A stretch of 32,000 bases of DNA from Candidatus Saccharimonas sp. (GTDB lineage Bacteria > Patescibacteriota > Saccharimonadia > Saccharimonadales > Saccharimonadaceae): assembly GCA_015256915.3 (NCBI GenBank), contig CP076101.2:570001-602000 (forward strand), written 5' to 3'. Below, piece after piece: positions 1 through 32,000 of this stretch. The first letter of the stretch is position 1. Each line of letters starts with the position of its first letter. The position numbers and the translations under genes are program-made. The notes beneath the pieces are model-generated. The model had not been told where the DNA came from, ran no database searches, and saw only the letters and a list, made by a program, of their open reading frames with translations.

Positions 1-377
1 AACTTTGCCATTGAACGAGGAATCCAAAGTTCCGTACTATTTTGTATGTTTTTGCCTCTTCGATAATAAAAAATCCAAGTTGAGATCCCAGCAGCAACTA
101 AAATACCAGCCAAGACTGCCCAAGCTACTTTCGAAAATGCAATATTATAAAATATTCCAGCAAAATATGCAAAAGTTGAAAAAATAAGAATAGTTGCAAA
201 AACTGATCCAAAAACTAAAGACATAGATAACTTTGTTAATTGTAAATGCGACTTTTTCTTGCTTAAAGTGTGCCCACTCAAAAGTGTTAGAACGCTAATA
301 CTCAAATGAAAACTAGCATGCACCATTGCCGCTAAGATTACTACTAATAAAATCATCCGAATTTCCATAAGCTTCAT
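1..377 (-). CDS. hypothetical multi-pass membrane protein, N-terminal part (ORF runs off the left edge of the window)
   Basis: My own reverse-strand translation from ATG at 377-375: MKLMEIRMILLVVILAAMVHASFHLSISVLTLLSGHTLSKKKSHLQLTKLSMSLVFGSVFATILIFSTFAYFAGIFYNIAFSKVAWAVLAGILVAAGISTWIFYYRRGKN... It stays open to position 1 and has several hydrophobic helices. It is absent from the ORF track because no stop lies inside the window. There is no clear SD, so the start is uncertain. Confidence 0.5.
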   Translation of the reverse strand, partial: MKLMEIRMILLVVILAAMVHASFHLSISVLTLLSGHTLSKKKSHLQLTKLSMSLVFGSVFATILIFSTFAYFAGIFYNIAFSKVAWAVLAGILVAAGISTWIFYYRRGKNIQNSTELWIPRSMAK

Positions 378-441
378 TTAAATTATATTATAAGCACAAG
401 CGAAAATCAAGAAAAATGTTTAAGTTTTTTCGAAAAAAGTC

Positions 442-470
442 TTGACTTTTATATTTTTATATGTTATTAT
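442..470 (+). promoter_or_regulatory. sigma70-type promoter with extended -10
   Basis: TTGACT 442-447, 17-nt spacer, TGtTATTAT 462-470. It lies about 40 nt upstream of the SD-led small ORF at 510. Confidence 0.6.
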
Positions 471-509
471 AAATAACGTAATATTATTTAAAAACAAAAA
501 GGAAAATAA

Positions 510-632
510 ATGGCACGACACGAACGAATGTCCTCATGGGATAGACACCGAACTAAAAAAGAACTCCGAAACTTCATTGATGCAAGAATTTCACGATTCA
601 ATGAATTTGATGAGTTCGAAGATTTAGTCTAA
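510..632 (+). CDS. small highly charged protein, 40 aa (not in ORF track)
   Basis: ATG 510 is preceded by AAGGA (499-503, 6-nt spacer). Translation: MARHERMSSWDRHRTKKELRNFIDARISRFNEFDEFEDLV, stop TAA 630-632. It sits between the promoter at 442-470 and the terminator at 640-668. Confidence 0.45.
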   Translation: MARHERMSSWDRHRTKKELRNFIDARISRFNEFDEFEDLV

Positions 633-639
633 GAATATG

Positions 640-668
640 AAGCTCGCAAAATTAGCGAGCTTTTCTCT
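640..668 (+). terminator. intrinsic terminator
   Basis: AAGCTCGC (640-647) / GCGAGCTT (655-662), 8-bp stem, 7-nt loop, followed by TTTCTCTT. Confidence 0.7.
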
Positions 669-707
669 TGAAAAAAGTTTTTCAATGTGCTAAAATATAA
701 ACATTAT

Positions 708-784
708 GGTAGCGTAGCTCAGTTGGTTAGAGCGTAGGACTCATAAGCCTAAGGTCGCAGGTTCAATCCCCGCCGCTACTACCA
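708..784 (+). tRNA. tRNA-Met (CAU), elongator type
   Basis: Cloverleaf read by eye: GGTAGCG-TA-GCTC-AGTTGGTTA-GAGC-G-TAGGA-CTCATAA-GCCTA-AGGTC-GCAGG-TTCAATC-CCCGC-CGCTACT-A-CCA. Anticodon CAT and encoded CCA. The D arm resembles E. coli elongator tRNA-Met as I remember it. One A-G mismatch closes the anticodon stem and pair 1-72 is G-U. Confidence 0.8.
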
Positions 785-799
785 GAAATTATATAGAAA

Positions 800-830
800 A
801 TCGTTGCAAATTTTGTAACGATTTTTATTT
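800..830 (+). terminator. intrinsic terminator after tRNA-Met
   Basis: ATCGTTGCA (800-808) pairs with TGTAACGAT (814-822), including one G-U pair. 5-nt loop, then TTTTATTTTT. Confidence 0.6.
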
Positions 831-885
831 TTATAAATAAAAATAACCTTCCATTTTTGAAAAGTTATTTTTTGAAATAATTTCT

Positions 886-963
886 TGGTTGCGGGAGTAG
901 GATTTGAACCTACGACCTCTTGGTTATGAGCCAAGCGAGCTGACCAGACTGCTCCATCCCGCG
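886..963 (-). tRNA. tRNA-fMet (CAU), initiator type
   Basis: Reverse complement: CGCGGGA-TG-GAGC-AGTCTGGTCA-GCTC-G-CTTGG-CTCATAA-CCAAG-AGGTC-GTAGG-TTCAAAT-CCTAC-TCCCGCA-A-CCA. The C1xA72 mismatch is the bacterial initiator hallmark and the sequence is close to E. coli tRNA-fMet. Only two, not three, G-C pairs lie at the base of the anticodon stem. Confidence 0.9.
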
Positions 964-1015
964 ATATCTGCTTTATATTTTATCACGCAGATATTTAAAA
1001 GTCAAGGGTTTTTGG

Positions 1016-1456
1016 CTATTTCGTTGCCTTTTGAGCATTTCCACCAAAAATAAAGTTAATCCATTGTGTAAAATTTGAAGGTTTTGGCGTTTTAGTTTGC
1101 TCTTTCTTTTGTTCTTCTGGGTATTTCGAAAGAATCAAAACATGTTCACCTGGCATTGCAAGACCAAGTTTTTCACGTACAGCAAGCTCTTGGTATTCAG
1201 AACTTTTCAGATATTTTTGCTCATATTCAAGTGTTTTATAGCTAATTTCATCAATTAAAGCCTGGCGCTGTTTGAGTTCTAGCTTTTTTTGAATTGAATA
1301 ATTTTTTTCCATCGCCGCAATATTCCCCCAAACCCAAATTATCGAGATAAAAATAACACTGGCCATAACAATATTACTCAAAGTTAAAATATCGTTCGAA
1401 AAATAATATTTCGCACGGCGAGTTTTAGTTTTTAAATCGTTTAAGTTTAATTTCAC
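1016..1456 (-). CDS. septum formation initiator family protein (DivIC/FtsB/FtsL-like)
   Basis: 146 aa with a single N-terminal TM (IVMASVIFISIIWVWG), then a coiled coil and the family-typical C-terminal segment EYQELAVREKLGLAMPGEHVLIL. GTG start with no clear SD, so the start is uncertain. Confidence 0.75.
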   Translation of the reverse strand: MKLNLNDLKTKTRRAKYYFSNDILTLSNIVMASVIFISIIWVWGNIAAMEKNYSIQKKLELKQRQALIDEISYKTLEYEQKYLKSSEYQELAVREKLGLAMPGEHVLILSKYPEEQKKEQTKTPKPSNFTQWINFIFGGNAQKATK

Positions 1457-1496
1457 TATTTAATTTTATCACATTTTCTGATATAATTAAATAGTC

Positions 1497-1572
1497 GGGG
1501 GATTAGCTCAGCGGTTAGAGCAGTCGTCTCATACACGATTGGTCGCTGGTTCGAACCCAGCATCCCCTACCA
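1497..1572 (+). tRNA. tRNA with CAU anticodon, probably tRNA-Ile2 (lysidine type)
   Basis: GGGGGAT-TA-GCTC-AGCGGTTA-GAGC-A-GTCGT-CTCATAC-ACGAT-TGGTC-GCTGG-TTCGAAC-CCAGC-ATCCCCT-A-CCA. From the D arm through the T arm it closely resembles E. coli ileX as I remember it. The Ile2 versus Met assignment needs a covariance-model classifier. Confidence 0.85.
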
Positions 1573-1614
1573 AAATCGCCTAATTGGCGTTTTTATTTTT
1601 ATTTTGAATTTAAC

Positions 1615-1647
1615 AAAACCGCCCCATCTGAATGAGAGGCGGTTTTT
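1615..1647. terminator. bidirectional intrinsic terminator
   Basis: AAAACCGCC (1615-1623) pairs with GGCGGTTTT (1638-1646), with A/T runs on both sides. It lies just downstream of the minus-strand gene ending at 1657. Confidence 0.6.
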
Positions 1648-1656
1648 ATAAATTGA

Positions 1657-1863
1657 TTATTTCTTGCGAGAAACTGTCAAGAAGCCGTTTCGTGGATTTT
1701 CTTTTACAATTCGGTCTTCTGGAAGGTCGCAAGGCTCACCCTTATCGTTCTTTTCTTTTTTAGCAAAGAAGTAAATTGTTTGTGGTTTTCCGCCACGCAA
1801 AGTTACTTCACTTTTGTGCAAATAATATGTAATTCCTTTTGAATTTGTTTGACTATAAGCCAT
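1657..1863 (-). CDS. small conserved-looking hypothetical protein, 68 aa
   Basis: The track ORF is 1657..1899. I prefer the internal ATG at 1863 because AAAGGA lies about 6 nt upstream. Product: MAYSQTNSKGITYYLHKSEVTLRGGKPQTIYFFAKKEKNDKGEPCDLPEDRIVKENPRNGFLTVSRKK. I do not recognise a family with certainty. Confidence 0.6.
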   Translation of the reverse strand: MAYSQTNSKGITYYLHKSEVTLRGGKPQTIYFFAKKEKNDKGEPCDLPEDRIVKENPRNGFLTVSRKK

Positions 1864-1932
1864 TTCTATCCTTTCATTACTACTGTTATATATTTTCATT
1901 GTATATCAGTTTTAAAGTGGTGTCAAGCCTTT

Positions 1933-2616
1933 TTACACTTTTGGTGTATATTTTTTCAAAATAAGCTTAAGAATTATAGTTGTTATCATTTTTATTATAA
2001 TCATAAAAATTAAAATTATTGCTACTAAAGTTGTCCATCCAGCCAAATCTGGTGACCAAATTGGTGCGACAAAACTATAAGTATATTCTGAAATATTTGG
2101 GTATTCAGCCTTAACTTGACCCTGACTACTTGCAGGATATTTATTTTGCTCATCTAAAATACACTGTTGATATGCTAAAGAATATCCGCCACGGAACCTT
2201 GGCCGGCAAGCTTCTTCCGCCTTTTTAAAAATATTTCCATTCGGATTATCACTTTCAGCTTCACGAGCAACCTGCTCGGCTTTTCTCATATCACTTTCAT
2301 AAATATTCGCCCATACAATTTTCACTTCTCGGTTCATTTTGAACCAGTGAGTTTCATCACTATAAAAAATTCCGCCACTATTCATATGAGCATAAACGTA
2401 ATTAGCTAATTCAATTGTTGCTTTTCTGGTAGCTTCAACATCGCCAGATTTATCAGCCGTTTCAACAGCCTCTCTTCTACGAATCATTCCCACATTATTC
2501 AAACGTAAAGCTGTTAAATTTACAAAAATCACAAGTATAAGTAAAATAAACAATTGCCAATTTTTAAGCGATTGTATCTGTTTAAGACGTTTTTTAATTC
2601 TGCCTTTACCCACCAT
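1933..2616 (-). CDS. hypothetical membrane protein (N- and C-terminal TM helices, extracytoplasmic middle)
   Basis: 227-aa ORF with TM helices at about residues 20-38 and 195-215. No recognisable catalytic motif. Confidence 0.6.
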   Translation of the reverse strand: MVGKGRIKKRLKQIQSLKNWQLFILLILVIFVNLTALRLNNVGMIRRREAVETADKSGDVEATRKATIELANYVYAHMNSGGIFYSDETHWFKMNREVKIVWANIYESDMRKAEQVAREAESDNPNGNIFKKAEEACRPRFRGGYSLAYQQCILDEQNKYPASSQGQVKAEYPNISEYTYSFVAPIWSPDLAGWTTLVAIILIFMIIIKMITTIILKLILKKYTPKV

Positions 2617-2652
2617 AATACTTATGTATATTTTACCAAAATTCCAAGAAAA

Positions 2653-4212
2653 TTACAAATTTTGCTTAATTTTTTGAGCTAATTTTTCACCAACAATTTT
2701 CGAAAGCTCTTGCACAGGGGCTTCGCGAATTTTCTTTAGCGAACCAAATTCTCGCAATAATTTTGCCCGCGTTTTTATTCCTACACCATCAATTTTTTCT
2801 AATGCATTCTGAGTTTGCTTTTTAGTTCGCAAATTAGAATGATAATTAATTGCAAATCGGTGAGCTTCATCACGAATCCGCTGGAAAAGCTTGGTTAAAT
2901 CACTAAATTCTGAGTTACTTTCACCTAGCAAGTTGCGGGCGTGGCCGTGTGAATGGCTTTGCAAAAGGTGCAAATTTAGTATCAAAAAATCGCCCTCTCG
3001 CCGAACCGAAAAATCTCTATCATTTTTTTCGAAGTTTTTATCTAACCAATTAGTTTTGAGGTTTGGATTTTGCGTATCAAAAATAATCTCTTCATCACGC
3101 TTAGCAATTCCAATTGCTAAAATATCTCTTGGCAAAACTTCTCGCACTGCACTTAATTGACCTTTTCCACCATCAATCAAAACTAAATCAGGCCATCCCC
3201 ATTTTTCGTTTCGCTTCGAGAATCTCCGTATTAAAACTTCTTTCATATGAAGAAAATCATCATTTCCGCCAGTTGTCATTTTAAATTTTCGATACTCTCG
3301 CTTGTCGCTAAGCCCATTTGTAAAAACCACCATCGACGCCACATTGTTTTCTCCACCAGTGTGCGAAATGTCATAAGCCTCAATTCTCCTCAGTGGAATT
3401 TCAAGCGAGAGAATTTCCGCCAATTTCGCTAATGCGTGGTCTTTTGAAATATCCAAAAATTCCTCGTTCGAAAAAATAACCTGTTTACCAAGCTCACTTA
3501 AATCTCGCAGTTGGTTACGTTTTTTTGCAGCCATTTCGAAATTCTGTTCATTCGCAAAATCGAGCATTTCTTTCTCAATTTCAAGCTGAAGCATTTTTCG
3601 CTCACCTTTTAAATATCGCGAGAGCTGGCGTAAATTACGTTTATATTCTGTCATTTTTTGTTGATATTCGGGCAAATTTGGTTCAAAATTTTCCAGCCCA
3701 GGAGTTAAACCAATCTGAAAATCTAAACTATTTCTAGCTGGCATTTTTTCACTCAAATAATACGGAAAGACTCTTCGAAGCAATCGGACCGATTTTTTCA
3801 CTGCATTAGAATTATAAAATGGGCCAAAATATTCTGCTAAATCATCAAGCGGATTTTTAGTGAAACTAACATGCGGAATTTTGTCACGAAAACCAATTCG
3901 CACGTAAGTTGGTGATTTATCATCCCGCAAAAGTATGTTGTACTGTGGCTTGTAGCGCTTAATCATCTCGCTCTCTAAAAATAGCGCATCAATTTCAGTC
4001 TCAACCTCAATCCAGTCAGTCATCGCAATTTCTGATACCAAAGCTTCAGTTTTTGGATCTTTTCCGCGCGAGTTTTGAAAATATTGCCGCACACGATTTT
4101 TTAAATTTGCCGCTTTTCCAACATAAATAATCTCATCTTTCGAATTTTTATGAAAATAAACGCCAGCGGAATTTGGCAGTTCTTTTAGCTTTTTCGAAAG
4201 TTGTTTGTTCAT
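2653..4212 (-). CDS. uvrC: excinuclease ABC subunit C
   Basis: N-terminal GIY-YIG motif (GVYFHKNSKDEIIYVGKAANLKNRVRQYF), a central UVR-like helix, the endonuclease region (IEAYDISH...LIDGGKGQL) and a C-terminal helix-hairpin-helix (IDGVGIKTRAKLLREFGS). 519 aa, which is short for the family. Confidence 0.93.
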   Translation of the reverse strand: MNKQLSKKLKELPNSAGVYFHKNSKDEIIYVGKAANLKNRVRQYFQNSRGKDPKTEALVSEIAMTDWIEVETEIDALFLESEMIKRYKPQYNILLRDDKSPTYVRIGFRDKIPHVSFTKNPLDDLAEYFGPFYNSNAVKKSVRLLRRVFPYYLSEKMPARNSLDFQIGLTPGLENFEPNLPEYQQKMTEYKRNLRQLSRYLKGERKMLQLEIEKEMLDFANEQNFEMAAKKRNQLRDLSELGKQVIFSNEEFLDISKDHALAKLAEILSLEIPLRRIEAYDISHTGGENNVASMVVFTNGLSDKREYRKFKMTTGGNDDFLHMKEVLIRRFSKRNEKWGWPDLVLIDGGKGQLSAVREVLPRDILAIGIAKRDEEIIFDTQNPNLKTNWLDKNFEKNDRDFSVRREGDFLILNLHLLQSHSHGHARNLLGESNSEFSDLTKLFQRIRDEAHRFAINYHSNLRTKKQTQNALEKIDGVGIKTRAKLLREFGSLKKIREAPVQELSKIVGEKLAQKIKQNL

Positions 4213-4351
4213 CTCTTATTATTATATCATTTTATATTTTTTATAAAAACTATTTTATTATATTTAATAATATGCTATACTCAGAATATAGATTATACTC
4301 AAGATAAAATATATCTTGAATAGCCTTGAACTTTAGAAAGGGGTATATAAT

Positions 4352-4459
4352 ATGGAACAAACCGAAACTAACAAAGTAGAAGAACCTTGCCATATCAAAT
4401 TGTTCACCGGACAAATTGTGATCTTTAGACCCTGTAACGAGCAGTCAAAAAAAGAATAA
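4352..4459 (+). CDS. small ORF, 35 aa, two Cys (not in ORF track)
   Basis: ATG 4352 is preceded by AAAGGGG (4338-4344). Product: MEQTETNKVEEPCHIKLFTGQIVIFRPCNEQSKKE, stop TAA 4457-4459. A hairpin terminator follows. An extended -10-like TGcTATACT lies at 4273-4281. Confidence 0.4.
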   Translation: MEQTETNKVEEPCHIKLFTGQIVIFRPCNEQSKKE

Positions 4460-4473
4460 TACCCAAAAACCTT

Positions 4474-4510
4474 AAGCCACCTAATTTTGGTGGCTTTAAA
4501 TATTTTTTCA
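4474..4510 (+). terminator. intrinsic terminator
   Basis: AAGCCACC (4474-4481) pairs with GGTGGCTT (4489-4496), 7-nt loop, then TAAATATTTTTT. Confidence 0.6.
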
Positions 4511-4693
4511 AAAAAATAAATTTGATAAATTCATTATATGTTATTAGCTAAATCAAGCAAATTTAACATGATTTTAATCTGTTTTGTTAAAAATATTGGC
4601 AACAAAATTAGCAATTTTCAAGAAAACTTGGTAGTTGCAAATGAGCATTTTTTATATAATTGATGTATAATAATTAATATGAAAGGACAAAAA

Positions 4694-5566
4694 ATGTTTA
4701 ATCAGAATTTACAAAAATTACGAGCCGAGAAAAATATCTCACAAGAGCAACTTGCTGATAAAATTGGCGTTTCGCGACAATCAGTTTCAGCCTGGGAGAG
4801 TGGCAAATCTTCCCCTGAACTTGACAAACTAATTGCCCTAAGCGAACTCTTCGAAATTAGTTTAGATGAACTAACCGGCGAAATTTCAACCAAAAAAGCC
4901 AATTTTAATAAAAAAGAATATGAGAAATCATATCAAAAAATTGCACTAATTCGTGCGCTTGGTATGCTTATTCTTTTTACCGGCCTTGCAATAGCAGCAT
5001 ATTTTTCAGGATCAACAGCAAGTTTTAATGTTTTAGCAGGGGTTAGCTTAATGCTATCCTTAGCAATATCAGTTCCCCTACTAATTTTAGCTAAAAATTT
5101 TGATAATTCAGAAATTGAAAACCTACTTGATTATACTATAAAAATTGACAAATTTTTTTCAAAAAATGAAATCAGACAAGCCAAAAATATTAAAAATAGC
5201 AGTGCTATGGCACTGGTATCAACAATTTTTACAGCTATAGCAACTCATCAAATAATTTATCATTTTTCTGATCTTGGCATTAATTTAGCTAATGCTATAT
5301 TTATGGCCCTATTAGGAATTGGAATCTCAGCATCAACTTACGGAAATTCTATTTTTTCGAAAATTAATAACTTTTATGAAATCGAAAATAAAGATGAAGA
5401 AAAAGATTCAAAAATAGGATTTTTTGCGGCAATAATAATGCTTTCAATCACAGCAATTTATTTAACTTACAGTTTTATTACAAATAATTGGGAATCGGCT
5501 GAACTATTTTACCCGGTTGGCGGAATTGCAATTGCAATTTATGCTATTTACGTAAAAAAGAAATAA
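4694..5566 (+). CDS. XRE-family HTH transcriptional regulator fused to a multi-pass membrane domain
   Basis: HTH_3 signature LRAEKNISQEQLADKIGVSRQSVSAWESGKSSPELDKLIALSELFEISLDELTG, followed by about 6 predicted TM helices. The track start is 4679. The ATG at 4694 has AAAGGA 5 nt upstream, so either start is possible. Confidence 0.8.
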   Translation: MFNQNLQKLRAEKNISQEQLADKIGVSRQSVSAWESGKSSPELDKLIALSELFEISLDELTGEISTKKANFNKKEYEKSYQKIALIRALGMLILFTGLAIAAYFSGSTASFNVLAGVSLMLSLAISVPLLILAKNFDNSEIENLLDYTIKIDKFFSKNEIRQAKNIKNSSAMALVSTIFTAIATHQIIYHFSDLGINLANAIFMALLGIGISASTYGNSIFSKINNFYEIENKDEEKDSKIGFFAAIIMLSITAIYLTYSFITNNWESAELFYPVGGIAIAIYAIYVKKK

Positions 5567-5577
5567 TCATCAAAACA

Positions 5578-5610
5578 AAACGCTCAATAACTAAAATTTT
5601 GAGCGTTTTT
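5578..5610. terminator. bidirectional intrinsic terminator between convergent genes
   Basis: AAACGCTCA (5578-5586) pairs with TGAGCGTTT (5600-5608), with A-run and T-run flanks. Confidence 0.65.
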
Positions 5611-5624
5611 AATATTTTTGATAG

Positions 5625-7523
5625 TTAATTCTTATACAAAGCGTGCGAATTTGCCGCGACTCGCTCCAAGAAAAGTAACTGAGCTTGCTGAACATTTTCT
5701 GGTTTTCCAACCCAAGCTTGAAGCGCTGGCATCTGTAAAGCTCGCGCATAACTATAGGTCAATCCCCAGTCAAAAGGTCCGAGATTGGTTATTTCTTGGA
5801 GATTATCAGTTGCCTGAGTTGTGGTTTGTCCACCAGAAAGGAATACGATACCTGCCAATTCTTTTGGAACTATTTTCTTAAAAATAGAAACGGTTTCTCG
5901 TGCAACCTCTCTTGAAGAAGATTGAATTTCATTTTCAGAGCCAGCAAGAACCATATTTGTTTTCAAGACTGTTCCTTTAAGATCAACCTTAAATATTTTT
6001 AGTTCCTCAAAGAGCTTTTTAAGAATCTTTTCCGTAACTTCTCGGCACTGTTTAATAGTGTGTTTCCCAGAATAAACCACCTCTGGCTCAACGATTGGTA
6101 CAATTCCATAATTCTGGCAGGCTTTAGCATATTGTGCCAAAACTCGCAAATTTGAAGCGATCGCAGCTTTGCTCGGCGTTCCTTTTTCTTCATCAATTTC
6201 AAAAGCAACTCGCCATTTCGCAAAATCAATTCCTGCTTTTGAATATTTTTGGAGTTTTTCAACCAAAGAATCAAGTCCCAATGAAATCGTCTCGCCTTCA
6301 AATCCAGTTAAAGGCTGCAAACCACCGTCAAGTTTCACACCAACCAAAATTCCGCGATTTTTCAAATACTCAACAAAATTAATACCTTCAGAAGTGTTTT
6401 GTTCGGTTGTCTCTTCAAAAAGAATAATTCCACTTAAATAATTTTCAATATCTGGTGTTTTGAAAAACATCTCACGATAGGCTCGGCGATTTTCAAAAGT
6501 ATCTTCAATCCTAATCGTTTCGAATTTTTTATGAATATTCCCGCCAGACTCATCTGCAGCAAATATTCCTTTTGGCCGCGTAACTAATTTTGCAGCAGTT
6601 TTGTGCAATCGTGTTTCAATATCTGGCGTATTACTCAAAACATCAACAGGTAATTCATAATTTTTGCGATTTAAAATTTGATGCGCATAAAAAGGCTTCA
6701 ATATATCATTAAAATCAGATTTATTAGCAATCGTAACTGAAACCTGCAAATTTTCTTCTAATTTTGAAGGATTCGAAAAATTTTCAGCAACGAAAGCTGC
6801 CTGAAAAATATTATTCTGGTAAAACGAATTTAATTCAAAATTAGTTTCAATACTGGCAATTTTTTCTTTATTTCCAGCAACTATTTTCGAGCCATCAAAA
6901 ATAACAACGCCTCGCACGCCAGTTCTAATTAGTGAATCTATCGCATTTTCATAACTTGAATAATCAATTAGATCGCTTAAATTTTGTTTTCGAAAATCTA
7001 CAAAAACTAAATTCGCTCGAACGAAAAACTCATGCGCAAGCTCAGGACCCAAATCGGCGACATTAAAAACAAGCTCAATATTTGGATTCTCGCGCAAATA
7101 TTTTTTAAAATCTGTCAGATAATTTTGCGAAAAATTAGCATCCGCAATATAAATTAAATCTGGTGGAAAAGCTGGCGAAACCCATTTTGTGCTACGAGGG
7201 TTACTGGTTAAAATAAAACTCTTGCCTTTATACGAAACTATAAATCGATCAATCAGATTGCTGTTAATTTCATCATATTCGAAATGAGAAGTACCGTTTG
7301 GATTCGCACTTGAAAAAGCCTTAAAATGCGCTGCTGTAAAGATTTTTTCACTCAAAATTGTTCCACCATAAACACCAGCTTGTTTTTGATAATTTAAAGT
7401 TGAATCATCAAAAGTTAGATCATAATGAAAATCATTGAGCTCATCTTTATAAATTTTTTGATTTTGAATGTCTAAAAAGTTATCTTTTGTCGCATTTCCA
7501 ATCGATAAAATCGTCGGTTTCAT
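5625..7523 (-). CDS. fba: class I fructose-bisphosphate aldolase with an extra ~300-aa N-terminal domain (PfkB/ribokinase-like, apparently degenerate)
   Basis: The C-terminal ~330 aa carry class I FBA signatures: KGIFAADESGGNIHKKF, ENRRAYREMFFKTP, SGIILFEETT, GVKLDGG and the Schiff-base lysine context LKGTVLKTNMVLAG. N-terminal residues 1 to about 300 start like a PfkB kinase (ILSIGNATKDNFLD, VYGGT), but no DTxGAGD-type motif is recognisable. Confidence 0.85.
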   Translation of the reverse strand: MKPTILSIGNATKDNFLDIQNQKIYKDELNDFHYDLTFDDSTLNYQKQAGVYGGTILSEKIFTAAHFKAFSSANPNGTSHFEYDEINSNLIDRFIVSYKGKSFILTSNPRSTKWVSPAFPPDLIYIADANFSQNYLTDFKKYLRENPNIELVFNVADLGPELAHEFFVRANLVFVDFRKQNLSDLIDYSSYENAIDSLIRTGVRGVVIFDGSKIVAGNKEKIASIETNFELNSFYQNNIFQAAFVAENFSNPSKLEENLQVSVTIANKSDFNDILKPFYAHQILNRKNYELPVDVLSNTPDIETRLHKTAAKLVTRPKGIFAADESGGNIHKKFETIRIEDTFENRRAYREMFFKTPDIENYLSGIILFEETTEQNTSEGINFVEYLKNRGILVGVKLDGGLQPLTGFEGETISLGLDSLVEKLQKYSKAGIDFAKWRVAFEIDEEKGTPSKAAIASNLRVLAQYAKACQNYGIVPIVEPEVVYSGKHTIKQCREVTEKILKKLFEELKIFKVDLKGTVLKTNMVLAGSENEIQSSSREVARETVSIFKKIVPKELAGIVFLSGGQTTTQATDNLQEITNLGPFDWGLTYSYARALQMPALQAWVGKPENVQQAQLLFLERVAANSHALYKN

Positions 7524-7589
7524 TTCCCACCTTTAAAAATTATTATGCTTTTGCTTAAATTATATCAAATTTTCGAAAATAAAGCAAAC

Positions 7590-8915: not shown

Positions 8916-8970
8916 TTTTACCTCTTTTCTATTTTAATTTTAACACATTTTACTTAGAAAAGTCTTAAAA

Positions 8971-9002
8971 TTGTAAGAAAAAGAAAAACCCCCGAGACTT
9001 CG
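8971..9002 (-). terminator. intrinsic terminator of the gene ending at 9049
   Basis: On the minus strand, CTCCCGAAGTCTCGGGGG forms a CCCGA/TCGGG stem with a 4-nt loop. It is followed by TTTTTCTTTTTCTT. Confidence 0.6.
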
Positions 9003-9048
9003 GGAGATTTTCTTGGCTCCCCTTGATAGAAATATTACTAACCAGCAA

Positions 9049-10647: not shown

Positions 10648-10819
10648 AATATATCCTATCTAGCTCTTCTATTTTTATCAGACTAGTCATATTTTTTCTA
10701 TTATGATATATCAATTGGAAATTTTTTGCAATATAGAATTAAATAAAAAATAAAAAAGGCTCTATTTTAATCTGTTAGAACCTTTTCTCACATTATCAAA
10801 TTGTCATAAAACTCAAATT

Positions 10820-10894
10820 TGGCTCCGGCAGCTGGGCTCGAACCAGCGACCTATTGGTTAACAGCCAACCGCTCTACCACTGAGCTATGCCGGA
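10820..10894 (-). tRNA. tRNA-Asn (GUU)
   Basis: Reverse complement: TCCGGCA-TA-GCTC-AGTGGTA-GAGC-G-GTTGG-CTGTTAA-CCAAT-AGGTC-GCTGG-TTCGAGC-CCAGC-TGCCGGA-G-CCA. Confidence 0.9.
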
Positions 10895-10950
10895 ATAATA
10901 ATCTTATTATACACGAGTTTTTTAATAATTTCAAGACTTTTTTCTATTTT

Positions 10951-10986
10951 TTCAGAAAAATCGGCCCACTTTGTTAGTGAGCCGAT
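10951..10986 (-). terminator. intrinsic terminator of the ABC permease gene
   Basis: ATCGGCCCAC (10960-10969) pairs with GTGAGCCGAT (10977-10986) with one mismatch. On the minus strand it is followed by TTTTTCTG. Confidence 0.6.
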
Positions 10987-10997
10987 TTTTATTATCT

Positions 10998-12981: not shown

Positions 12982-12994
12982 ATTCCTCCTTTAA

Positions 12995-24112: not shown

Positions 24113-24121
24113 TCCCATAAT

Positions 24122-24157: not shown

Positions 24158-24165
24158 GTCACTTT

Positions 24166-24375: not shown

Positions 24376-24476
24376 GAAAACACGCTATTTTTATGGTTCC
24401 TCCCAAAAATCACCTTAGCGCTTACACTTATATAATATATCATTTTATACACAAGCGCAATACTTTTTTATTATTT

Positions 24477-25064: not shown

Positions 25065-25076
25065 AGTTAAATTATA

Positions 25077-25505: not shown

Positions 25506-25506
25506 T

Positions 25507-27174
25507 TTATTTTAAGAATCCCATCACAACAATTACAATAAGGCTAATTAAAGTTAAAATAGCCATTAATGGAGCAGTTCTCTTAACCCAGTTTTTATAA
25601 GGAACACCTGCGAGCGCTAAACCAGCCATTAATGATGCAATTGTAGGGGCAACCATATTAAGAAGTCCAGATGCAGTCGCAAACGCAACGACAGCAATTT
25701 CTTTAGTTGAACCAGCCAAATCTGCAACAGGAGCAATAATTGGCATTGTAGCCTCTGCTAAACCAGAAGATGATGGAATGATAAATGACATTGGGATATA
25801 GAAAATATAAGCCAAAACACCAAATATCTGTGATGGAACTTTTCGAAGAAGTTCTTCACCCCAATAAACAATCGTATCTTGAATTCCACCAGCCTGCATC
25901 AAAACGCCAATTGCTGCAGCAACCGCAATAATTAAAGCAACACTCAATAAATCTGCCGAGCCAGCAAGGAAAGTATTTGTTACAGAAACATCATCTTTTT
26001 TAAATTCCTCATGATAAAGAATTTTAATCATTATTGTCGAGATTAAGAACAATGCTGAAATTTCGTTAAAATACCAAGAACCAAATGGAACAGCATGCTC
26101 AAATCCGAAGATTCCACCAACAATAGGCAAAGTTGCGAGCCATTCGTGCCAGTCTTCAAAGAATGTTACGTGCAAATCTTTCCAAGGAACAAGTGACATA
26201 ATCATTACAAGGAAAGTTAGCCCAAAAATTCCCATCACAAATTTTCGCTCAAGTGTAAATTCTGGTACTTTCGAAGCATCAATTGCTTTAACTGCTGGTT
26301 TTCCTTTAGAATCTTCAGCATATTCACCAGCTTTAACTTTAGCAGCATATCGCATCGTAAAGATAATCGAAGCAGCTAAAGATGCAACTAGAATTATAAA
26401 CTGAGGCAATAATATTTTCGATAATTCTGCACCAGCAGCGTTTGCAGCAATAATAGTTGAGAATGGATTTACAGTTGAAGCTAAAACACCTGAGCCAGCT
26501 CCAAGAACAATTACCATTACGGCAGTCATTGAATTATAACCAGCAGCAATCATAATTGGCACGATTAATGCATAAAACGCTACCGCTTCTTCTTGCATAC
26601 CATAAGTAGTTCCACCAATCGCAAAAAGTGTCATTAAAACTGGAATAATCCACTTTTCTTTACCTTTCATCTTTTTGAGTAAACCACCAATTGCAGAATC
26701 AAGTGCACCGGTTTTCATCACAACACCCAAGAACCCACCAAGGATCAGGATGAATACGATTACATCAAGTTTCTTAGCCATTCCATAAATTGGAGACAAG
26801 AAAATATCCCAAAATCCTTGCTTTAGATTAATGTAATAATCTTTTTTCTCTTTTTCAGCTTTTTTAAAATCACTTGCTGCATTTTTATAACCTTTGCTTT
26901 CTGCCTCAGAAATTGAAATTTCGGTTTTTGGATTTTTAACTTCTTCAACAACTTTCAAGCGTTTTTCAGTTTGCGAGTAACTGTTGGATTTAATTTTTCC
27001 ATCTTCCAGTCGTTCATAACGACCACTTGGTATAAGCCAAGTTAATCCAGCCATTATTGCAATAATAATGAATAAAACACTAAAAGCTGACGGCGATTTA
27101 AACACTTTTAGCTTTTTCGAAACCTTTTTAACCTTTTTTGAAGCAGTTTTATCTGCATCTTTTTTCATAGCCAT
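25507..27174 (-). CDS. YfcC / C4-dicarboxylate anaerobic carrier (DcuC)-family transporter, probable arginine/ornithine exchanger of the ADI cluster
   Basis: 555 aa, polytopic with more than 10 TM helices. Its position directly after arcA and the OTC gene matches the streptococcal-type ArcD arrangement, which uses this family. The substrate is inferred from context only. Confidence 0.7.
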   Translation of the reverse strand: MAMKKDADKTASKKVKKVSKKLKVFKSPSAFSVLFIIIAIMAGLTWLIPSGRYERLEDGKIKSNSYSQTEKRLKVVEEVKNPKTEISISEAESKGYKNAASDFKKAEKEKKDYYINLKQGFWDIFLSPIYGMAKKLDVIVFILILGGFLGVVMKTGALDSAIGGLLKKMKGKEKWIIPVLMTLFAIGGTTYGMQEEAVAFYALIVPIMIAAGYNSMTAVMVIVLGAGSGVLASTVNPFSTIIAANAAGAELSKILLPQFIILVASLAASIIFTMRYAAKVKAGEYAEDSKGKPAVKAIDASKVPEFTLERKFVMGIFGLTFLVMIMSLVPWKDLHVTFFEDWHEWLATLPIVGGIFGFEHAVPFGSWYFNEISALFLISTIMIKILYHEEFKKDDVSVTNTFLAGSADLLSVALIIAVAAAIGVLMQAGGIQDTIVYWGEELLRKVPSQIFGVLAYIFYIPMSFIIPSSSGLAEATMPIIAPVADLAGSTKEIAVVAFATASGLLNMVAPTIASLMAGLALAGVPYKNWVKRTAPLMAILTLISLIVIVVMGFLK

Positions 27175-27189
27175 TTTCTTCTCCTAAAA

Positions 27190-28179
27190 TTACAAAGTTA
27201 AAGCCATAACCGCTTTAATCGTATGCATGCGGTTTTCAGCTTCATCGAATACAATTGAAGAGTTTGAGTTAAAGACTTCATCAGTAACTTCCATTTCTTT
27301 CAATCCATATTTTTCGAAAATTTCTTTTCCAATTTTTGTATTTAAATCATGGAATGCTGGTAAACAGTGCATAAATTTTACATTTGGGTTTCCAGTTGCA
27401 TGAAGAAGTGCCATATTTACTTGAAATCCGCGTAGTTGGTGGATTCGTTCCTCAAATTTATCTTCTTCTCCCATTGATACCCATACATCAGTATAGATGA
27501 AATCTGCGCCGTGAGCAGCACCATATAGGTCGTCTGTAATTGTAATTTTTGCGCCAGTTTCACGAGCAATTTCACGGCATTTTTCAACCAAAGCAGGATC
27601 TGGATGAAGATTATTTGGGGCAGCAATTCGAAAATCAACGCCCATTTTAGCTGAGCCAACCATCAAGCTGTTTGCCATATTATTGCGTCCATCACCAACA
27701 AATACTAATTTAGCACCTTTTAGGTATCCAAGATGTTCTTCCATTGTCATAAAATCAGCCAAAATTTGAGTTGGGTGATACATATCAGTCAAACCATTCC
27801 AAACAGGTACACCAGCATATTTTGCAAGTTCTTCAACAGTTGAATGATCGAAACCGCGAAATTCAATTCCATCAAATGAGCGACCAAGCACAATTGCTGT
27901 ATCTTTAATTGATTCCTTTTTACCCATTTGAATATCATCTTTACCTAAAAATTCTGGGTGAATTCCCAAATCTCGAGCCGCCACAGTAAAAGCGGTTCGA
28001 GTTCGGGTTGAAGTTTTTTCAAAAAGCAAAGCAACTTGCTTACCTTCGTGAATTTTGTGAGCAATTCCAGCTCGCTTTAAACGTTTATATTCATGCGAAA
28101 CATCAAGCATTAAGCGAATTTCTTCTGGTGTAAAATCTAAAAGTGTTAGAAAATTTCGATTTTTCAAATTTAATGCCAT
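27190..28179 (-). CDS. arcB: ornithine carbamoyltransferase (catabolic context)
   Basis: Motifs [29 protein letters not shown] and FMHCLPAFH. The start is moved to the ATG at 28179 ([11 protein letters not shown]...), with GGAGAGAGGAG upstream. Only 2 nt separate it from the arcA stop. Confidence 0.93.
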
Positions 28180-28181
28180 TA

Positions 28182-29432
28182 TTAAATCTCCTCTCTCCAA
28201 ATTGGCATTGACATACAGCGTGGGCCTCCACGGCCACGACCAAGTTCAGCGCCCTGAATTTCAATAACTTCCACGCCAGCTTCACGCAAAGCTCTGTTGG
28301 TTACATAGTTTCGGTCATAAGTTACAACTACACCTGGAGCGATTGCTAGAGTATTCGAGCCATCGTTCCACTGTTCGCGAGCCGCCGCAATTGGATCACC
28401 ATCACCACATTGAATTAAATTTACATGGTCAAGACAAAGAACTTCCTCTAGAGTTTCTTTCAAGTTTGTGCGATGTGTAATTTTTGGCTGACCTGGAATG
28501 CCAGAATCTTCCAAAACGTAAATATTCAATTCACCATCTTTGTCTAAAATTTCTGGGTGAACTGTAAATTTATCATAATCAATCATTGTGAAAACAGTAT
28601 CAAGATGCATAAAAGCATGTGAAACTGGAATTTGAATTGCTAAAATTTTATTAAAATCTGAAAATTCAAACAATTTCGAAGCAACTTTTTCGATTGCTTC
28701 AGGAGTTGTTCGTTGTGAAACGCCAATTGCCATCACATTCTTCGAAAGAACGAGTTCATCGCCACCTTCCATATTGAATTTATTATAGCGATCAAACCAA
28801 ACCGGAACTTCACCACCAGGAGTTTTTGCTGCAAATCGTGGGTGATAGCGCATAATATATTCCATAAACAAACTCTCGCGTCGACGAGCTGGATATCGCA
28901 TTTTATTAATTGTTAAGCCATTTCCAACTGCAGCTGCTGGGTCACGAGTAAAGTAAAGATTTGGCATTGGGTCGAGCAAAAATGGATAATCACTCTTAAA
29001 ATAATAGTTCAAATGAGATTTTTCATCTTCATCAGTTTTAATCTCATCTTTTTTAACACCCGCCATAATTTTTCGAACAAGCTCGAGCGGCTCAAATTCT
29101 CCTAAATAACGCATCAAAGCGTGCGTTACATGTCGTTCACCTTGCTTCGAAGCTCGCACAAAATCAGAAATAAATCGCCACTTAATTTCATCATTATAAA
29201 GCGATTCTGCCGCTAATTGATCGAGATAAAGAACTTCAACTCCATGGTTTCGAAGAGTTTCCGCAAAAGCATCATGCTCAGCTTGTGCAACTTCCAAATA
29301 TGGAATATCATCAAAGAGTAGCTGTTCCAAATAATCCGGAGTTAACCCTTCAAGTTCTTTTCCTGGTCTATGTAAAATTACGGTTTTGAGTTTTCCGATT
29401 TCACTATTAACTTGAATCGGTTTTTCACCCAT
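28182..29432 (-). CDS. arcA: arginine deiminase
   Basis: [26 protein letters not shown]..., FTRDP, HLDTVF and the C-terminal catalytic Cys context [11 protein letters not shown]. The start is the ATG at 29432, with AGGGAGGG just upstream. The track start is 29474. Confidence 0.95.
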
Positions 29433-29464
29433 ATTCCCTCCCTTTATTTTATGTTTATGCTTTA

Positions 29465-29493
29465 ATTTTACCATAAAGATTATCTTTTATCAA
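29465..29493 (-). promoter_or_regulatory. arcA promoter (extended -10)
   Basis: Minus strand: TTGATA (29493-29488), 17-nt spacer ending in TG, TAAAAT (29470-29465). The imperfect palindrome ATAAAGAT-T-ATCTTTTAT overlaps the spacer and could be an operator. Confidence 0.6.
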
Positions 29494-29507
29494 ACAATTT
29501 AACTTTA

Positions 29508-29536
29508 TTGACTTTTTATTAGAAAAATTATATAAT
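29508..29536 (+). promoter_or_regulatory. near-consensus sigma70 promoter, divergent from arcA
   Basis: TTGACT 29508-29513, exactly 17-nt spacer, TATAAT 29531-29536. Confidence 0.65.
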
Positions 29537-29571
29537 AATAGCATCTTAGTACATTTTTGGAGGTGGAAATT

Positions 29572-29892
29572 ATGGTAAAAATTATGGTAACACACAGATA
29601 TCGTTCGAAAACCGTCACAATGGATGTTTCGGAAAATATTATTGCCCATGCTGAAAATGGTGACGACTGGGCAATTCGAAGAATTTTCGAAAATTATTTG
29701 AAGCTATGCCACTATCAAAGAGGTAAGCTTCAGCCCCGAAGTATACAATTCTGGCGAGTTAAGTCAAAATCGAAAATCCTTAAGCAAACTTTTGCACACC
29801 GAACAGATAATTTTTCGGCTTGCGAAAGGGAAAATTGTTTATTTTGTAACAATGGACAATACGAAAAATGCCCAAATAACCACCATATATAA
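29572..29892 (+). CDS. hypothetical Cys/His-rich small protein, 106 aa
   Basis: GGAGGTGG lies 5 nt before the ATG at 29572; the track start 29557 is a TTG inside the SD. The C-terminus CERENCLFCNNGQYEKCPNNHH looks like a zinc-binding cluster. The N-terminal part has a helical AENGDDWAIRRIFENYLKL segment. Flanked by its own promoter and terminator. Confidence 0.65.
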   Translation: MVKIMVTHRYRSKTVTMDVSENIIAHAENGDDWAIRRIFENYLKLCHYQRGKLQPRSIQFWRVKSKSKILKQTFAHRTDNFSACERENCLFCNNGQYEKCPNNHHI

Positions 29893-29915
29893 AAACCCTT
29901 TCGAAAAGGGTTTTT
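29891..29915. terminator. bidirectional intrinsic terminator with TTCGAA at the apex
   Basis: AAAAACCCTTTCGAAAAGGGTTTTT. The stem is CCCTTT/AAAGGG extended by A/T runs. TTCGAA at 29900-29905 occupies the loop. It is shared by the convergent genes ending at 29892 and 29914. Confidence 0.75.
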
Positions 29916-30855
29916 ATTTTTTAACTTGTTTTATGGATGAATGCTTTTGATGGCGAGTACGAGCTTTTGAATTCTTCATTTTAGCAGTGATTCGATTTAC
30001 ATCATGAATGACCATTTGCGGATATGGCAAAATAATATCGTTTTCATCAAAAGCTTTCTTGATTTCCCGCCGAAAAATTCCGGCAACATTCCATTGTTTT
30101 CCAGCTTTTACCCTTCCTAAACACTTAATTTCCATCGAGGAATCCAAGAATTTATTAACTCTTACAAATACAATTGGCTCAATAATATCTTTTTTCAATT
30201 CCGGATCTTCAAGCATTTTTAGCCCAACATTATTTATCACTTCTTCCAAAACATCAATATCCGTATCATAAGATACGCCAAACATTAAATTAACATTAGC
30301 ATATTTAAAAGAAAGATTTGTCACCGCCTCGCTTGCACCATTTCGAATTGTGTGAACTTTTCCATCACCATCACGAACCTGAGTAATTCGTAAAGAAATA
30401 TTCTCAACTTTCCCCGAAATTAGCCTTCCAGCAACCATAATTTCAATCGTATCTCCAACTCGATATTGGTTCTCACCTACAATGAAAAATCCCGCTAAAA
30501 TATCACGAGTTGTTGTTTGAGCACCAAGACCAACCACGACACCAACTAAACCAGCACCTGTCATTAAAGATGCTACATTAACACCAATTGAACTAAGAAA
30601 ATTTATAGCTGCAGTCATCCAAATAACGATATCAATTGTAGTTTTTGCAATTTTCGAAATTGTTTCATTTCTTTTTAAACGTTCTTCGGAGCGCTTTATT
30701 TTTTTAGTTTTCTTACGAACACTGAAAGCGAAATCAATAATTTTGCGTGATAAAAAACTCGCAAAAACTGCAATAAGAATAATCGTGATTGGTTCGAACC
30801 AGTCGTAATCTAAAAATCCTGTTATAAATTTTTCGAAACTCTTAAAAATATCCAT
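29914..30855 (-). CDS. mscS: mechanosensitive ion channel, MscS family
   Basis: 313 aa with 3 TM helices followed by the MscS beta-domain pattern ILAGFFIVGENQYRVGDTIEI...GKVENISLRITQVRDGDGKVHTIRNG. Confidence 0.85.
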   Translation of the reverse strand: MDIFKSFEKFITGFLDYDWFEPITIILIAVFASFLSRKIIDFAFSVRKKTKKIKRSEERLKRNETISKIAKTTIDIVIWMTAAINFLSSIGVNVASLMTGAGLVGVVVGLGAQTTTRDILAGFFIVGENQYRVGDTIEIMVAGRLISGKVENISLRITQVRDGDGKVHTIRNGASEAVTNLSFKYANVNLMFGVSYDTDIDVLEEVINNVGLKMLEDPELKKDIIEPIVFVRVNKFLDSSMEIKCLGRVKAGKQWNVAGIFRREIKKAFDENDIILPYPQMVIHDVNRITAKMKNSKARTRHQKHSSIKQVKK

Positions 30856-30899
30856 TACTAGTTATAATTAAAACATAAACACTTTATTTTTTCAATATT

Positions 30900-31250
30900 C
30901 TAATACCACAAAGTTAGAATTGCATCATCAATTTTTCTTGCTTGTTCAATTTGATTATTTTCAGCATAGGAGTCTCGCTTCTTAACTAAAAAATCATGAA
31001 TATTTTTTTCATCGCCAGAAAGTTCCGATATCTGTTTCTTAATAGAAATCGAACGAGCTTCACCACCATCAGATTTAGTTATTTTTCCCATTAAAACCAA
31101 ATTATCTATATGCTTCGCTACCGTTGCAACAGATTTATAGCCCATGCCACGAGCAATTTCGCGATATGTTGGGCTATAACCAGATTCTTCAATAAAAACT
31201 TCTATAAAATTCAAAAGTTCAACTTGTTTTTTAGTCAAATTAATTGCCAT
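30900..31250 (-). CDS. LexA-type winged-helix DNA-binding protein without S24 peptidase domain
   Basis: LTKKQVELLNFIEVFIEESGYSPTYREIARGMGYKSVATVAKHIDNLVLMGKI matches the LexA N-terminal DNA-binding domain. The remaining ~50 aa are helical and have no Ala-Gly cleavage site or Ser/Lys dyad. The ATG at 31250 has AGGTGA upstream and overlaps the LCP gene end by 11 nt. Confidence 0.7.
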   Translation of the reverse strand: MAINLTKKQVELLNFIEVFIEESGYSPTYREIARGMGYKSVATVAKHIDNLVLMGKITKSDGGEARSISIKKQISELSGDEKNIHDFLVKKRDSYAENNQIEQARKIDDAILTLWY

Positions 31251-32000
31251 TATCTTCACCTAACAAAATAATTATATCTGAATCTTCTCCTATTTTTGAT
31301 AATTCTGATGGTAATTTTTCAGCTTTGGTTGAATATTTAGATTCAAGATTTTTAATTGTTGCGGTTTTCGAATCTTCTTTTACATAATAAATTTTAGTTT
31401 TAGCATAGTCTCGCTTTGGTGCAGAATCAATATCTTGAATATTAAAGCCTTCTTTCTCAAGCTTTTTCTGTTCTTGAGCAGCTAATCCTGAATAATTCGT
31501 ACCATTTAAAATTTTAATTTTAGCGTTTTCTTTAATAACCTCACTACCAATTGTATTTTTTGAAATATAAGCTTGAATTTGGCTATAATTATAAGTTCCA
31601 GCTTTTGGTAAAACTGCACTAACCGAATTAATTAGCCCAGTTGTGAAATAATTTGCAGACTGATCATTTTCATTAACAAGTGGTAAAGAAGTTATAGATC
31701 CACCGTTAAAGTCTTGAGCAATTTCAGCCGCAGTCTTTAGTTCATCTCCGCTAAATGAGTGATGGATATTTTCACCCAAAGATGAAGCGAGCGAAAGTAA
31801 AGTTATTGGGTTAGTTTTTTGTTCATTTATCTTAGAAAACGCCGCTTTTAAAATCTTCTGCTGATTTCGTTCACGGTCAAAATTGCTTCCACTCAAACCA
31901 ACTCCGCCCGCTGAACCTCGAGCGCGCGAAAACGCCAATGCCGTTTCACCATCCATATGATAAGTTTCACCGCTCTTATAGTTAATTTTCGTAGCTACAT
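31240..32000 (-). CDS. LytR-CpsA-Psr (LCP) family protein, C-terminal part (ORF continues past the right edge)
   Basis: LCP core motif MDGETALAFSRARG...DRERNQQKILKA. The C-terminal LytR_C-like domain is KIKILNGTNYSGLAAQEQKKLEKEGFNI. My translation upstream of the track Met (…VATKINYKSGETYHM) stays open to position 32000. Confidence 0.8.
   Translation of the reverse strand, partial: VATKINYKSGETYHMDGETALAFSRARGSAGGVGLSGSNFDRERNQQKILKAAFSKINEQKTNPITLLSLASSLGENIHHSFSGDELKTAAEIAQDFNGGSITSLPLVNENDQSANYFTTGLINSVSAVLPKAGTYNYSQIQAYISKNTIGSEVIKENAKIKILNGTNYSGLAAQEQKKLEKEGFNIQDIDSAPKRDYAKTKIYYVKEDSKTATIKNLESKYSTKAEKLPSELSKIGEDSDIIILLGEDNGN

Follow-up and report, generated by a model that had tools for sequence, protein, structure and literature searches.

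Excess of the palindrome TTCGAA in a clade of oral Saccharibacteria points to a lineage-specific, HIP1-like iterated word

INTRODUCTION

Why should a short palindrome be several times more frequent than expected in both the genes and the spacers of a bacterium? The question is raised by the hexamer TTCGAA in a stretch of 32,000 bases from “Candidatus Saccharimonas” sp. (contig CP076101.2, positions 570,001 to 602,000; G+C, 34.2%), the whole of which is referred to here as the window. An earlier note, made by reading the letters of this DNA, had drawn attention to the word and had offered three explanations: a DNA uptake signal, biased T:G repair coupled to a methyltransferase, and a binding site for a nucleoid-associated protein. 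The present analysis confirms the excess and shows that it does not depend on reading frame; it also points to a lineage-specific iterated palindrome resembling the highly iterated palindrome (HIP) HIP1 of cyanobacteria, that is, a DNA tag read by a putative protein. A full-text search of the literature turned up no earlier description of an excess of TTCGAA, either in Saccharibacteria or in any other organism.

RESULTS

Abundance and placement of TTCGAA

Exact counting over the window gives 97 copies of TTCGAA where mononucleotide composition predicts 11.0, in agreement with the earlier hand count of about 97 against 10 to 12. Words that differ from it by one letter are ordinary, as had been claimed, with 6 to 16 copies each (ATCGAA, 9; TTCGAT, 16; CTCGAA, 8; TTCGAG, 6). 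The 8-mer TTTCGAAA is found 41 times (about 40 by hand) and the 10-mer TTTTCGAAAA 9 times; the earlier figure of at least eight 10-mers holds, although the listing was incomplete, the copy at 29684-29693 having been overlooked. Dinucleotide-preserving shuffles yield 23.07 ± 4.36 copies with a maximum of 32, and the excess in the window is about 4- to 9-fold over the composition and dinucleotide nulls. Among hexamers, TTCGAA ranks first by maximal-order Markov z, a ranking that had been proposed as a check and that was run here on the window. The maximal-order expectation itself, at 85 copies, was rejected as a null (lower orders give 23 to 48). It makes the excess look too small, since TTCGAA itself raises the counts of TTCGA and TCGAA, the 5-mers on which the model conditions.

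The word is as dense in non-coding DNA (3.07 per kb) as in coding DNA (3.03 per kb), and the 11 copies outside open reading frames (ORFs) bear out the claim that it is also intergenic. Within ORFs, 21 copies lie in frame 0 (TTC-GAA, Phe-Glu), 22 in frame 1 (xTT-CGA-Axx), and 43 in frame 2 (xxT-TCG-AAx), and the proportions of synonymously possible sites that are filled are 42%, 40%, and 38%, respectively. Codons were also permuted synonymously within each gene, which keeps the proteins, hence the dipeptides, and the codon usage of that gene. These shuffles, a control that the earlier note had asked for, produce 30.8 ± 4.5 to 4.8 copies compared to the 86 in coding DNA (z about 12 [11.6]), and they are conservative because the shuffled codon pools are already inflated by TTCGAA. 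With all three frames filled to about 40% and the shuffles falling short, the view that the signal acts at the level of DNA and is not a single-frame codon artifact is upheld. The three codon examples given in its support (L-S-K, N-F-E, and F-R-K) are all right, except that the F-E site begins at 3535, not at 3536.

Codon choice changes sharply where the neighboring letters would complete the word. For example, TCG accounts for 53% of the Ser codons between T and AA but only 12 to 21% elsewhere, and CGA accounts for 69% of the Arg codons between TT and A versus 16 to 41% elsewhere, the gain coming at the cost of AGA, CGT, and CGC. Likewise, TTC makes up 42% of the Phe codons before Glu (52% before GAA) compared to 17% elsewhere. 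A T at position -1 and an A at position +1 are each present in 65% of the sites, with no consensus further out. The 5′ side of TTTGAA carries T at the same 65%, and the 8-mer and 10-mer forms are thus mostly a matter of T-run/A-run context.

Could base composition, codon usage, or the dipeptides of the proteins still account for the excess, or could a hidden family of repeats? TCG, CGA, and TTC are fairly frequent codons in the genes of the window, which would favor such an origin. However, shuffles that preserve proteins and codons reach only 31 of the 86 copies, the preference for TCG is tied to the T_AA context, and non-coding DNA, where codons play no part, is equally dense. A repeat family is further contradicted by the lack of any flanking consensus beyond ±1 and by the alignments described below, in which orthologous sites differ by point changes, with no insertions. 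Codon, dipeptide, and repeat-family artifacts are therefore excluded, and the probability of an artifact of any of these kinds is negligible.

Lineages that carry the word

By UvrA, the window belongs to the Saccharibacteria (TM7), and its nearest species representatives are two metagenome-assembled genomes, L001 (99% identity) and L002 (97%); all other relatives have UvrA identities of ≤75%. Exact copies of the window proteins are present in many human oral metagenome assemblies, on contigs of up to 0.64 to 0.69 Mb. All 25 loci of this clade (L001, L002, and L081-L103), drawn from many independent oral metagenome assemblies, have TTCGAA at densities of 2.7 to 3.7 per kb, a range that also holds for about 9 kb of DNA lying beyond the start of the window. 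The other 78 loci that were fetched come from 20-odd Saccharibacteria, some of similar G+C, and from more distant bacteria; they have 0 to 0.8 copies per kb (0 to 0.4 for the relatives with UvrA identities of ≤75%), which is usually below expectation. On the question of whether relatives share the word, raised in the earlier note, the excess is restricted to one two-species clade among the loci compared.

When intermediate relatives were sought with UvrA, all of the sequences retrieved were ≥99% identical, so the origin of the excess can be dated only as after the split from the relatives with UvrA identities of ≤75%. Viral contigs scanned for TTTCGAAAN{0,30}TTTCGAAA gave chance hits only, and none of the long contigs in that scan had 3 TTCGAA sites per kb.

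Newly acquired DNA lacks the abundance of the word, and an accessory islet in the window (Table 1) therefore serves as an internal control. The islet, whose gene is a His_Phos_1/GT2 fusion (9049-10647), varies among strains; L081 and L083-L086 lack it, and L082 is among those that have it. At the same position, L001 has a 4.25-kb restriction-modification island (L001:18173-22421) with 2 sites, or 0.47 TTCGAA per kb versus 3.6 in its flanks. Given that both the relatives and the new DNA are poor in the motif, the word has been made in place, over time, by a factor specific to the clade.

The L001 island encodes an HNH_2 nuclease of 401 amino acids (aa) and a 621-aa protein that combines two methyltransferase domains of the Dam family (D12), and it is probably a type IIS-like restriction-modification system. 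Its double Dam-family methyltransferase was considered as the cause of the TTCGAA excess and rejected, as the island is strain-variable and motif-poor. The integration hot spot adjoins the gene for tRNA-Asn (10820-10894) and is occupied by the fusion gene, by nothing, or by the L001 island, depending upon the strain. No direct repeats were found in a search around the accessory islet.

Recombination among strains

Strains of the clade are mosaics in which a divergence of about 0% is broken by kilobase-sized blocks of 4 to 15%, with 65 distinct tract ends in 32 kb (window positions 9600-30000 compared with L094-L103 and positions 1-13000 with L081-L086). Some of the divergent tracts match the sister species L002. 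Homologous recombination is thus very frequent in this clade, even between its two species. The imported tracts are also motif-rich, and hence so were their donors.

Conservation of the six base pairs

Conservation was examined with tests modeled on those of Xu et al. for HIP1 (PMC5861425), applied to two alignments of the window, one of 18.4 kb with L001 (DNA identity, 94.7%) and one of 13.8 kb with L002 (85%). The Jaccard index of shared sites between the window and L001 is 0.80 for TTCGAA, compared to 0.57 for palindromes of the same G+C, 0.61 for all hexamers of the same G+C, and 0.45 for other WWCGWW words. With L002, the index is 0.36 versus 0.18 to 0.26 for the controls. Codon-matched comparisons give the same picture: relative to L001, TTC has changed at 0 of 11 sites before GAA but at 13 of 49 elsewhere, and TCG has changed at 1 of 29 sites between T and AA but at 11 of 44 elsewhere.

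A position-specific test, restricted to third codon positions and with the same codons outside TTCGAA providing the expectation, shows where this conservation resides. At positions 1, 2, 5, and 6 of the word, 5 of 148 sites differ from L001 (10.3 expected) and 4 of 91 differ from L002 (21.4 expected; P < 1e-4). At the CpG positions, 3 and 4, 8 of 87 sites differ from L001 (24.6 expected), whereas 24 of 48 differ from L002, where the comparison is saturated (26.8 expected). Flanking third positions (-2 to 0 and 7 to 9) show no conservation beyond expectation. Because the flanks are free while the positions of the hexamer are protected, the constrained unit is exactly six base pairs.

The building of sites has also altered proteins. 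Two of the five sites in uvrA, at 16154 and 17183, encode Ser (TCG) in place of Ala, which is the commonest residue at these positions in 25 outgroup orthologues.

Is the word maintained by repair?

These data bear upon a repair ratchet, in which biased mismatch correction tied to a TTCGAA methyltransferase would build up the word without any role for uptake. The ratchet could take the form of very-short-patch correction of T:G to C:G, as by Vsr, or of a methyl-directed correction of heteroduplexes towards the methylatable allele. The latter kind of ratchet was proposed for HIP1 by Elhai (PMC4390886; PMC5861425). In favor of a ratchet, TTCGAA is a classic type II recognition site, centered on a CpG and with sharp 6-bp limits, and 14 of the 21 site differences between the window and L002 are exchanges of TTCGAA with TTTGAA or TTCAAA, in either direction. 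Furthermore, CpGs within the word are about 3 times stabler than others at short range, with synonymous transitions relative to L001 at 8 of 88, compared to 238 of 728 for other CpGs and 386 of 1,785 for non-CpG C/G positions. Heavy recombination would also supply the heteroduplexes.

Other observations are at odds with the Vsr form. The deamination products are not depleted: TTTGAA is found 40 times (47.5 expected from the synonymous shuffle) and TTCAAA 43 times (33.2 expected), for a sum of 83 versus 80.7 and a ratio to the dinucleotide expectation of 0.88. Protection is strongest at the synonymous positions that lie outside the CpG, as described above, and the Ala-to-Ser changes in UvrA created sites. 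Frame 1 has the highest occupancy in context, although a CpG transition there leads to Gln or a stop codon, and CGA gains there over AGA, CGT, and CGC, which no T:G repair can bring about. In the comparison with L002, CGA in frame 1 is unchanged at all 10 motif-context sites but at only 30 of 46 (65%) elsewhere. Thus, with its products undepleted, its outer positions protected, and frame 1 the most saturated, the word cannot owe its abundance solely to a Vsr-type drive, and the depletion of TTTGAA and TTCAAA by which the second explanation of the earlier note was to be judged is absent. These observations do not contradict a methyl-directed correction of the whole site, but we know of no machinery for it in this phylum. 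Overall, a repair ratchet in either form is unlikely.

In the same coding alignment with L001 (10998-29474), CpGs outside TTCGAA differ more often than do non-CpG C/G positions. This hints at a general hypermutability of CpG, though CpG is not depleted overall.

Turnover, spacing, and selection on single copies

Sites turn over fully between the two species, while the occupancy of conserved contexts stays at about 50%. In the alignment that they share, the window clade has 59 sites and L001 has 67. Spacing between sites in the window is compatible with a Poisson process (coefficient of variation [CV], 0.82; Kolmogorov-Smirnov [KS] P = 0.55), with 8 gaps of under 50 bp compared to 13.7 expected. 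The uneven distribution described earlier is therefore correct only in part: the gaps that were named exist, but they fall within Poisson expectation, with the exception of the accessory DNA at 9021-10818.

Both results bear on direct selection for each copy, for example, as the site of an abundant chromosomal protein involved in nucleoid structure, replication, segregation, or strand discrimination. A role in binding a chromosomal protein was proposed for HIP1 by Xu et al. (PMC5861425), and the conservation and periodicity of HIP1 offer a precedent (PMC5861425). Conservation of the whole TTCGAA word with sharp limits would suit such a role, as would a spacing slightly more regular than Poisson (the CV of 0.82). 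However, the departure from randomness is not significant by the KS test, complete turnover is tolerated between species at an occupancy of only about 50%, and some 2,000 near-dispensable sites would have to be selected in a host-dependent bacterium with a tiny genome. We consider direct selection improbable.

DISCUSSION

A proposed fixation bias on the whole word

Taken together, the observations are best fit by a weak fixation bias that favors the word as a whole, in a population that recombines heavily. In the mechanism proposed here, a protein of the clade would read the complete 6-bp palindrome, and alleles bearing the word would be fixed about four-fold preferentially over others. Mutation would erode sites at its ordinary rate, but losses would seldom be fixed; the word would accumulate by molecular drive wherever the proteins tolerate it, even as ordinary C-to-T mutation kept eroding it. 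Such a regime would account for motif codons being no less polymorphic at their third positions, within the clade of the window, than are the same codons outside the motif (12 of 81 versus 30 of 244) and for the predominance of losses among polarized or rare changes, though this evidence is thin. The four-fold preference, taken to apply at any of the six positions, is a back-of-envelope estimate from a two-state model with one parameter. In this model, occupancy, which is about 20% for C/G at comparable synonymous sites, would climb to about 50% for the CpG positions and would exceed 90% for the T/A positions. The same model would reproduce the 2- to 3-fold lower loss rate at short divergence and the leveling off of CpG differences near 50% when divergence is long.

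For a preference that acts on about 2,000 sites at once, a bias in transmission would be an easier source than selection on each copy. Two biases of this kind are known in principle, the uptake or recombination of tagged DNA and the correction of heteroduplexes towards the tagged allele. That the fixation bias arises through preferential uptake or recombination of TTCGAA-tagged DNA during natural transformation may be given a little less than an even chance. This source is favored because Saccharibacteria are naturally transformable through ComEC, with com and pilus genes widespread in the phylum (PMC10633639), because the population recombines heavily, and because HIP1 sites, when methylated, enhance natural transformation by a factor of more than 100 (bioRxiv 10.1101/2024.09.10.611283).

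The reader of the word would most plausibly be an orphan DNA methyltransferase with type II-like specificity, or else a protein that reads its mark. The sharp 6-bp palindromic specificity is that of a type II site, which makes a methyltransferase-like reader likelier than a pilin-type receptor. DNA that carries the tag, possibly in methylated form, would then be preferentially taken up, protected, or recombined. The most specific version of this proposal, in which TTCGAA would serve this clade of oral Saccharibacteria as a self-recognition tag, dependent on methylation, that gates its natural transformation, is possible but rather doubtful.

Several findings weigh against a fixation bias of this kind. 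Since the strains are mosaics, many of the “polymorphisms” are imported tracts and not independent mutations. Tract ends lie no nearer to TTCGAA than expected by chance (median distance, 106 bp versus 106 bp), and a Chi-like role is therefore not indicated at the resolution of these data. The contrast between polymorphism and divergence is not significant (10/4 versus 72/59; P = 0.27). Changes polarized by parsimony comprise 11 losses and 1 gain, although the polarization is weak, as L002 is near synonymous saturation and many variants are imported tracts; rare variants comprise about 10 losses and 3 to 4 gains. Such a dominance of losses fits a balance between mutation and drive but equally the slow decay of a past process. 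The bare hexamer would discriminate only about 10-fold against other DNA. Finally, the only methyltransferases that a Pfam search identified among the ORFs of the window are those for tRNA and small molecules, and no DNA methyltransferase is encoded there or in the 10-kb extensions on both sides; genes for vsr, com, or a pilus are likewise absent from the window and from roughly 10 kb beyond its start. The reader protein is thus hypothetical, as the search reached only this part of a genome of about 0.65 Mb.

The same losses could indicate a relic, in which the process acted on the long branch to the clade, is now extinct, and has left the word to decay slowly. Along with the losses, the smaller number of sites in the window clade than in L001 would agree with decay, as would a polarized rate of gain at TTTGAA and TTCAAA that is not above the generic T-to-C rate. 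However, all six positions change less than the same codons elsewhere, contrary to what neutral decay predicts, and near synonymous saturation both species still have about 3 sites per kb and an occupancy of about 50%. A relic is very unlikely for these reasons.

Comparison with known systems

For a fixation bias on the whole word, the closest known analogue is the HIP1 word of cyanobacteria, which the earlier note had not considered. HIP1 (GCGATCGC) and the alternative cyanobacterial HIPs are, like TTCGAA, short palindromes above Markov- and codon-aware expectations. HIP1 shows both over-representation and conservation in every frame (PMC5861425), methyltransferases that are specific for HIPs occur alongside them (PMC4390886), and the abundance of HIP1 covaries with the DNA uptake machinery (bioRxiv 10.64898/2026.06.24.733823). 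Further features common to the HIPs and TTCGAA are spread by point substitution through all frames and spacers, lineage-specific “dialects,” conservation of the sites and their constituent codons above controls, and occurrence in naturally transformable organisms. Thus, the hyper-abundance, the presence in all frames and in spacers, the extra conservation of sites and codons, and the dialect that characterize HIPs are all observed for TTCGAA. The two differ in that TTCGAA is an AT-rich hexamer in excess by about 4- to 9-fold, whereas HIP1 is a GC-rich octamer in excess by 15- to 300-fold. TTCGAA also belongs to a genome of about 0.65 Mb in the Saccharibacteria, a lineage of the candidate phyla radiation (CPR), instead of cyanobacteria.

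The uptake signal sequences (USS) of Pasteurellaceae and the DNA uptake sequences (DUS) of Neisseriaceae are asymmetric 9- to 12-mers with flanking preferences and are read by a pilin or an unknown receptor. TTCGAA resembles them in its density of about 1 to 3 per kb in core DNA, genes included, in being carried by relatives that recombine with one another and seldom by foreign or newly acquired DNA, in an accumulation compatible with molecular drive, and in the recruitment of amino acid changes. However, its unit is a 6-bp palindrome with unconstrained flanks and has no asymmetric core, which counts against an uptake signal of this classical type. An uptake signal as such, the first explanation of the earlier note, is nevertheless a viable reading.

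In Escherichia coli, Dcm and Vsr are associated with a mild excess of CCWGG and a depletion of its T-containing products. TTCGAA shares with that system the enrichment of a methylase-type palindrome and a predominance of C/T exchanges among its site differences, but its deamination products are undepleted, and its best-protected positions lie outside the CpG. The BstBI/AsuII/SfuI site is the identical word, with the same sharp 6-bp palindromic specificity. A restriction system predicts the avoidance of its own site, whereas TTCGAA is 4- to 9-fold in excess, and genes for a BstBI-type restriction-modification system are absent from the DNA that was accessible.

Other features of the window

Coordinates of the features are collected in Table 1. 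Three tRNA genes with the anticodon CAT lie within 0.9 kb, at 708-784 (+), 886-963 (-), and 1497-1572 (+); presumably, they are those for initiator Met, elongator Met, and Ile2. Among them, only the third contains TTCGAA. Nearly all genes of the window are on the minus strand, and the plus strand contains 6,414 C versus 4,538 G, a strong strand bias for a Saccharibacterium. The tetramer GATC is about two-fold under-represented (42 copies versus about 85 by the maximal-order Markov model), with the lowest z of any tetramer (-7.9), which suggests that the lineage has, or once had, an active restriction system specific for GATC. In a 632-aa protein (5625-7523, -), the class I fructose-bisphosphate aldolase domain covers residues 306 to 629 only, and the N-terminal 300 residues have no Pfam match. 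A cluster for the arginine deiminase pathway (25507-29474, -) encodes arginine deiminase, ornithine carbamoyltransferase, and a DcuC-type carrier, which fits a mammal-associated Saccharibacterium.

Table 1. Positions of TTCGAA and of associated features in the window
Feature	Position(s)	Strand	Remarks
TTCGAA palindrome, 97 dispersed copies	1-32000		86 within ORFs, 11 outside
10-mer TTTTCGAAAA, example	427-436		Non-coding; exact counting
All nine 10-mers (start positions)	427, 5354, 6987, 7570, 13502, 20501, 24483, 27311, 29684		Exact counting
TTCGAA inside the T-arm GGTTCGAACC of tRNA-Met (1497-1572)	1550-1555	+	Functional RNA sequence, outside the drive
TTCGAA (29900-29905) at the center of a terminator-like hairpin, AAAAACCCTT/AAGGGTTTTT	29891-29914		Read from sequence; predicted fold
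uvrA, 5 TTCGAA sites	16108-18918	-	Sites at 16154 and 17183 carry motif-encoded Ser
Motif-poor accessory islet beside tRNA-Asn	9021-10818	-	28.5% G+C; 2 TTCGAA sites in 1.8 kb

Implications

To our knowledge, the function of HIP1 and other hyper-abundant palindromes has been debated for 30 years, and recent work implicates an enhancement of natural transformation that depends on methylation. TTCGAA provides a second, independent, and genetically simpler system (about 0.65 Mb) in which to learn what iterated palindromes do. Together with this small genome, the sharp on/off boundary between sister lineages and the availability of hundreds of assemblies of strains from the human mouth bring the question within reach of comparative genomics and of methylation calling on existing long-read oral metagenomes. 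If the proposed reading is correct, TTCGAA would be the first uptake or recombination signal in the CPR/Patescibacteria and an independent, much simpler counterpart of HIP1, and the gene or genes responsible would be identifiable by comparing genomes of about 650 genes between the motif-rich clade and its motif-poor relatives. Now that Saccharibacteria are being manipulated by natural transformation, a tag of this kind, if it enhances uptake or recombination, could make uncultivated oral lineages more amenable to genetics. Such a tag could also define which of these lineages exchange genes.

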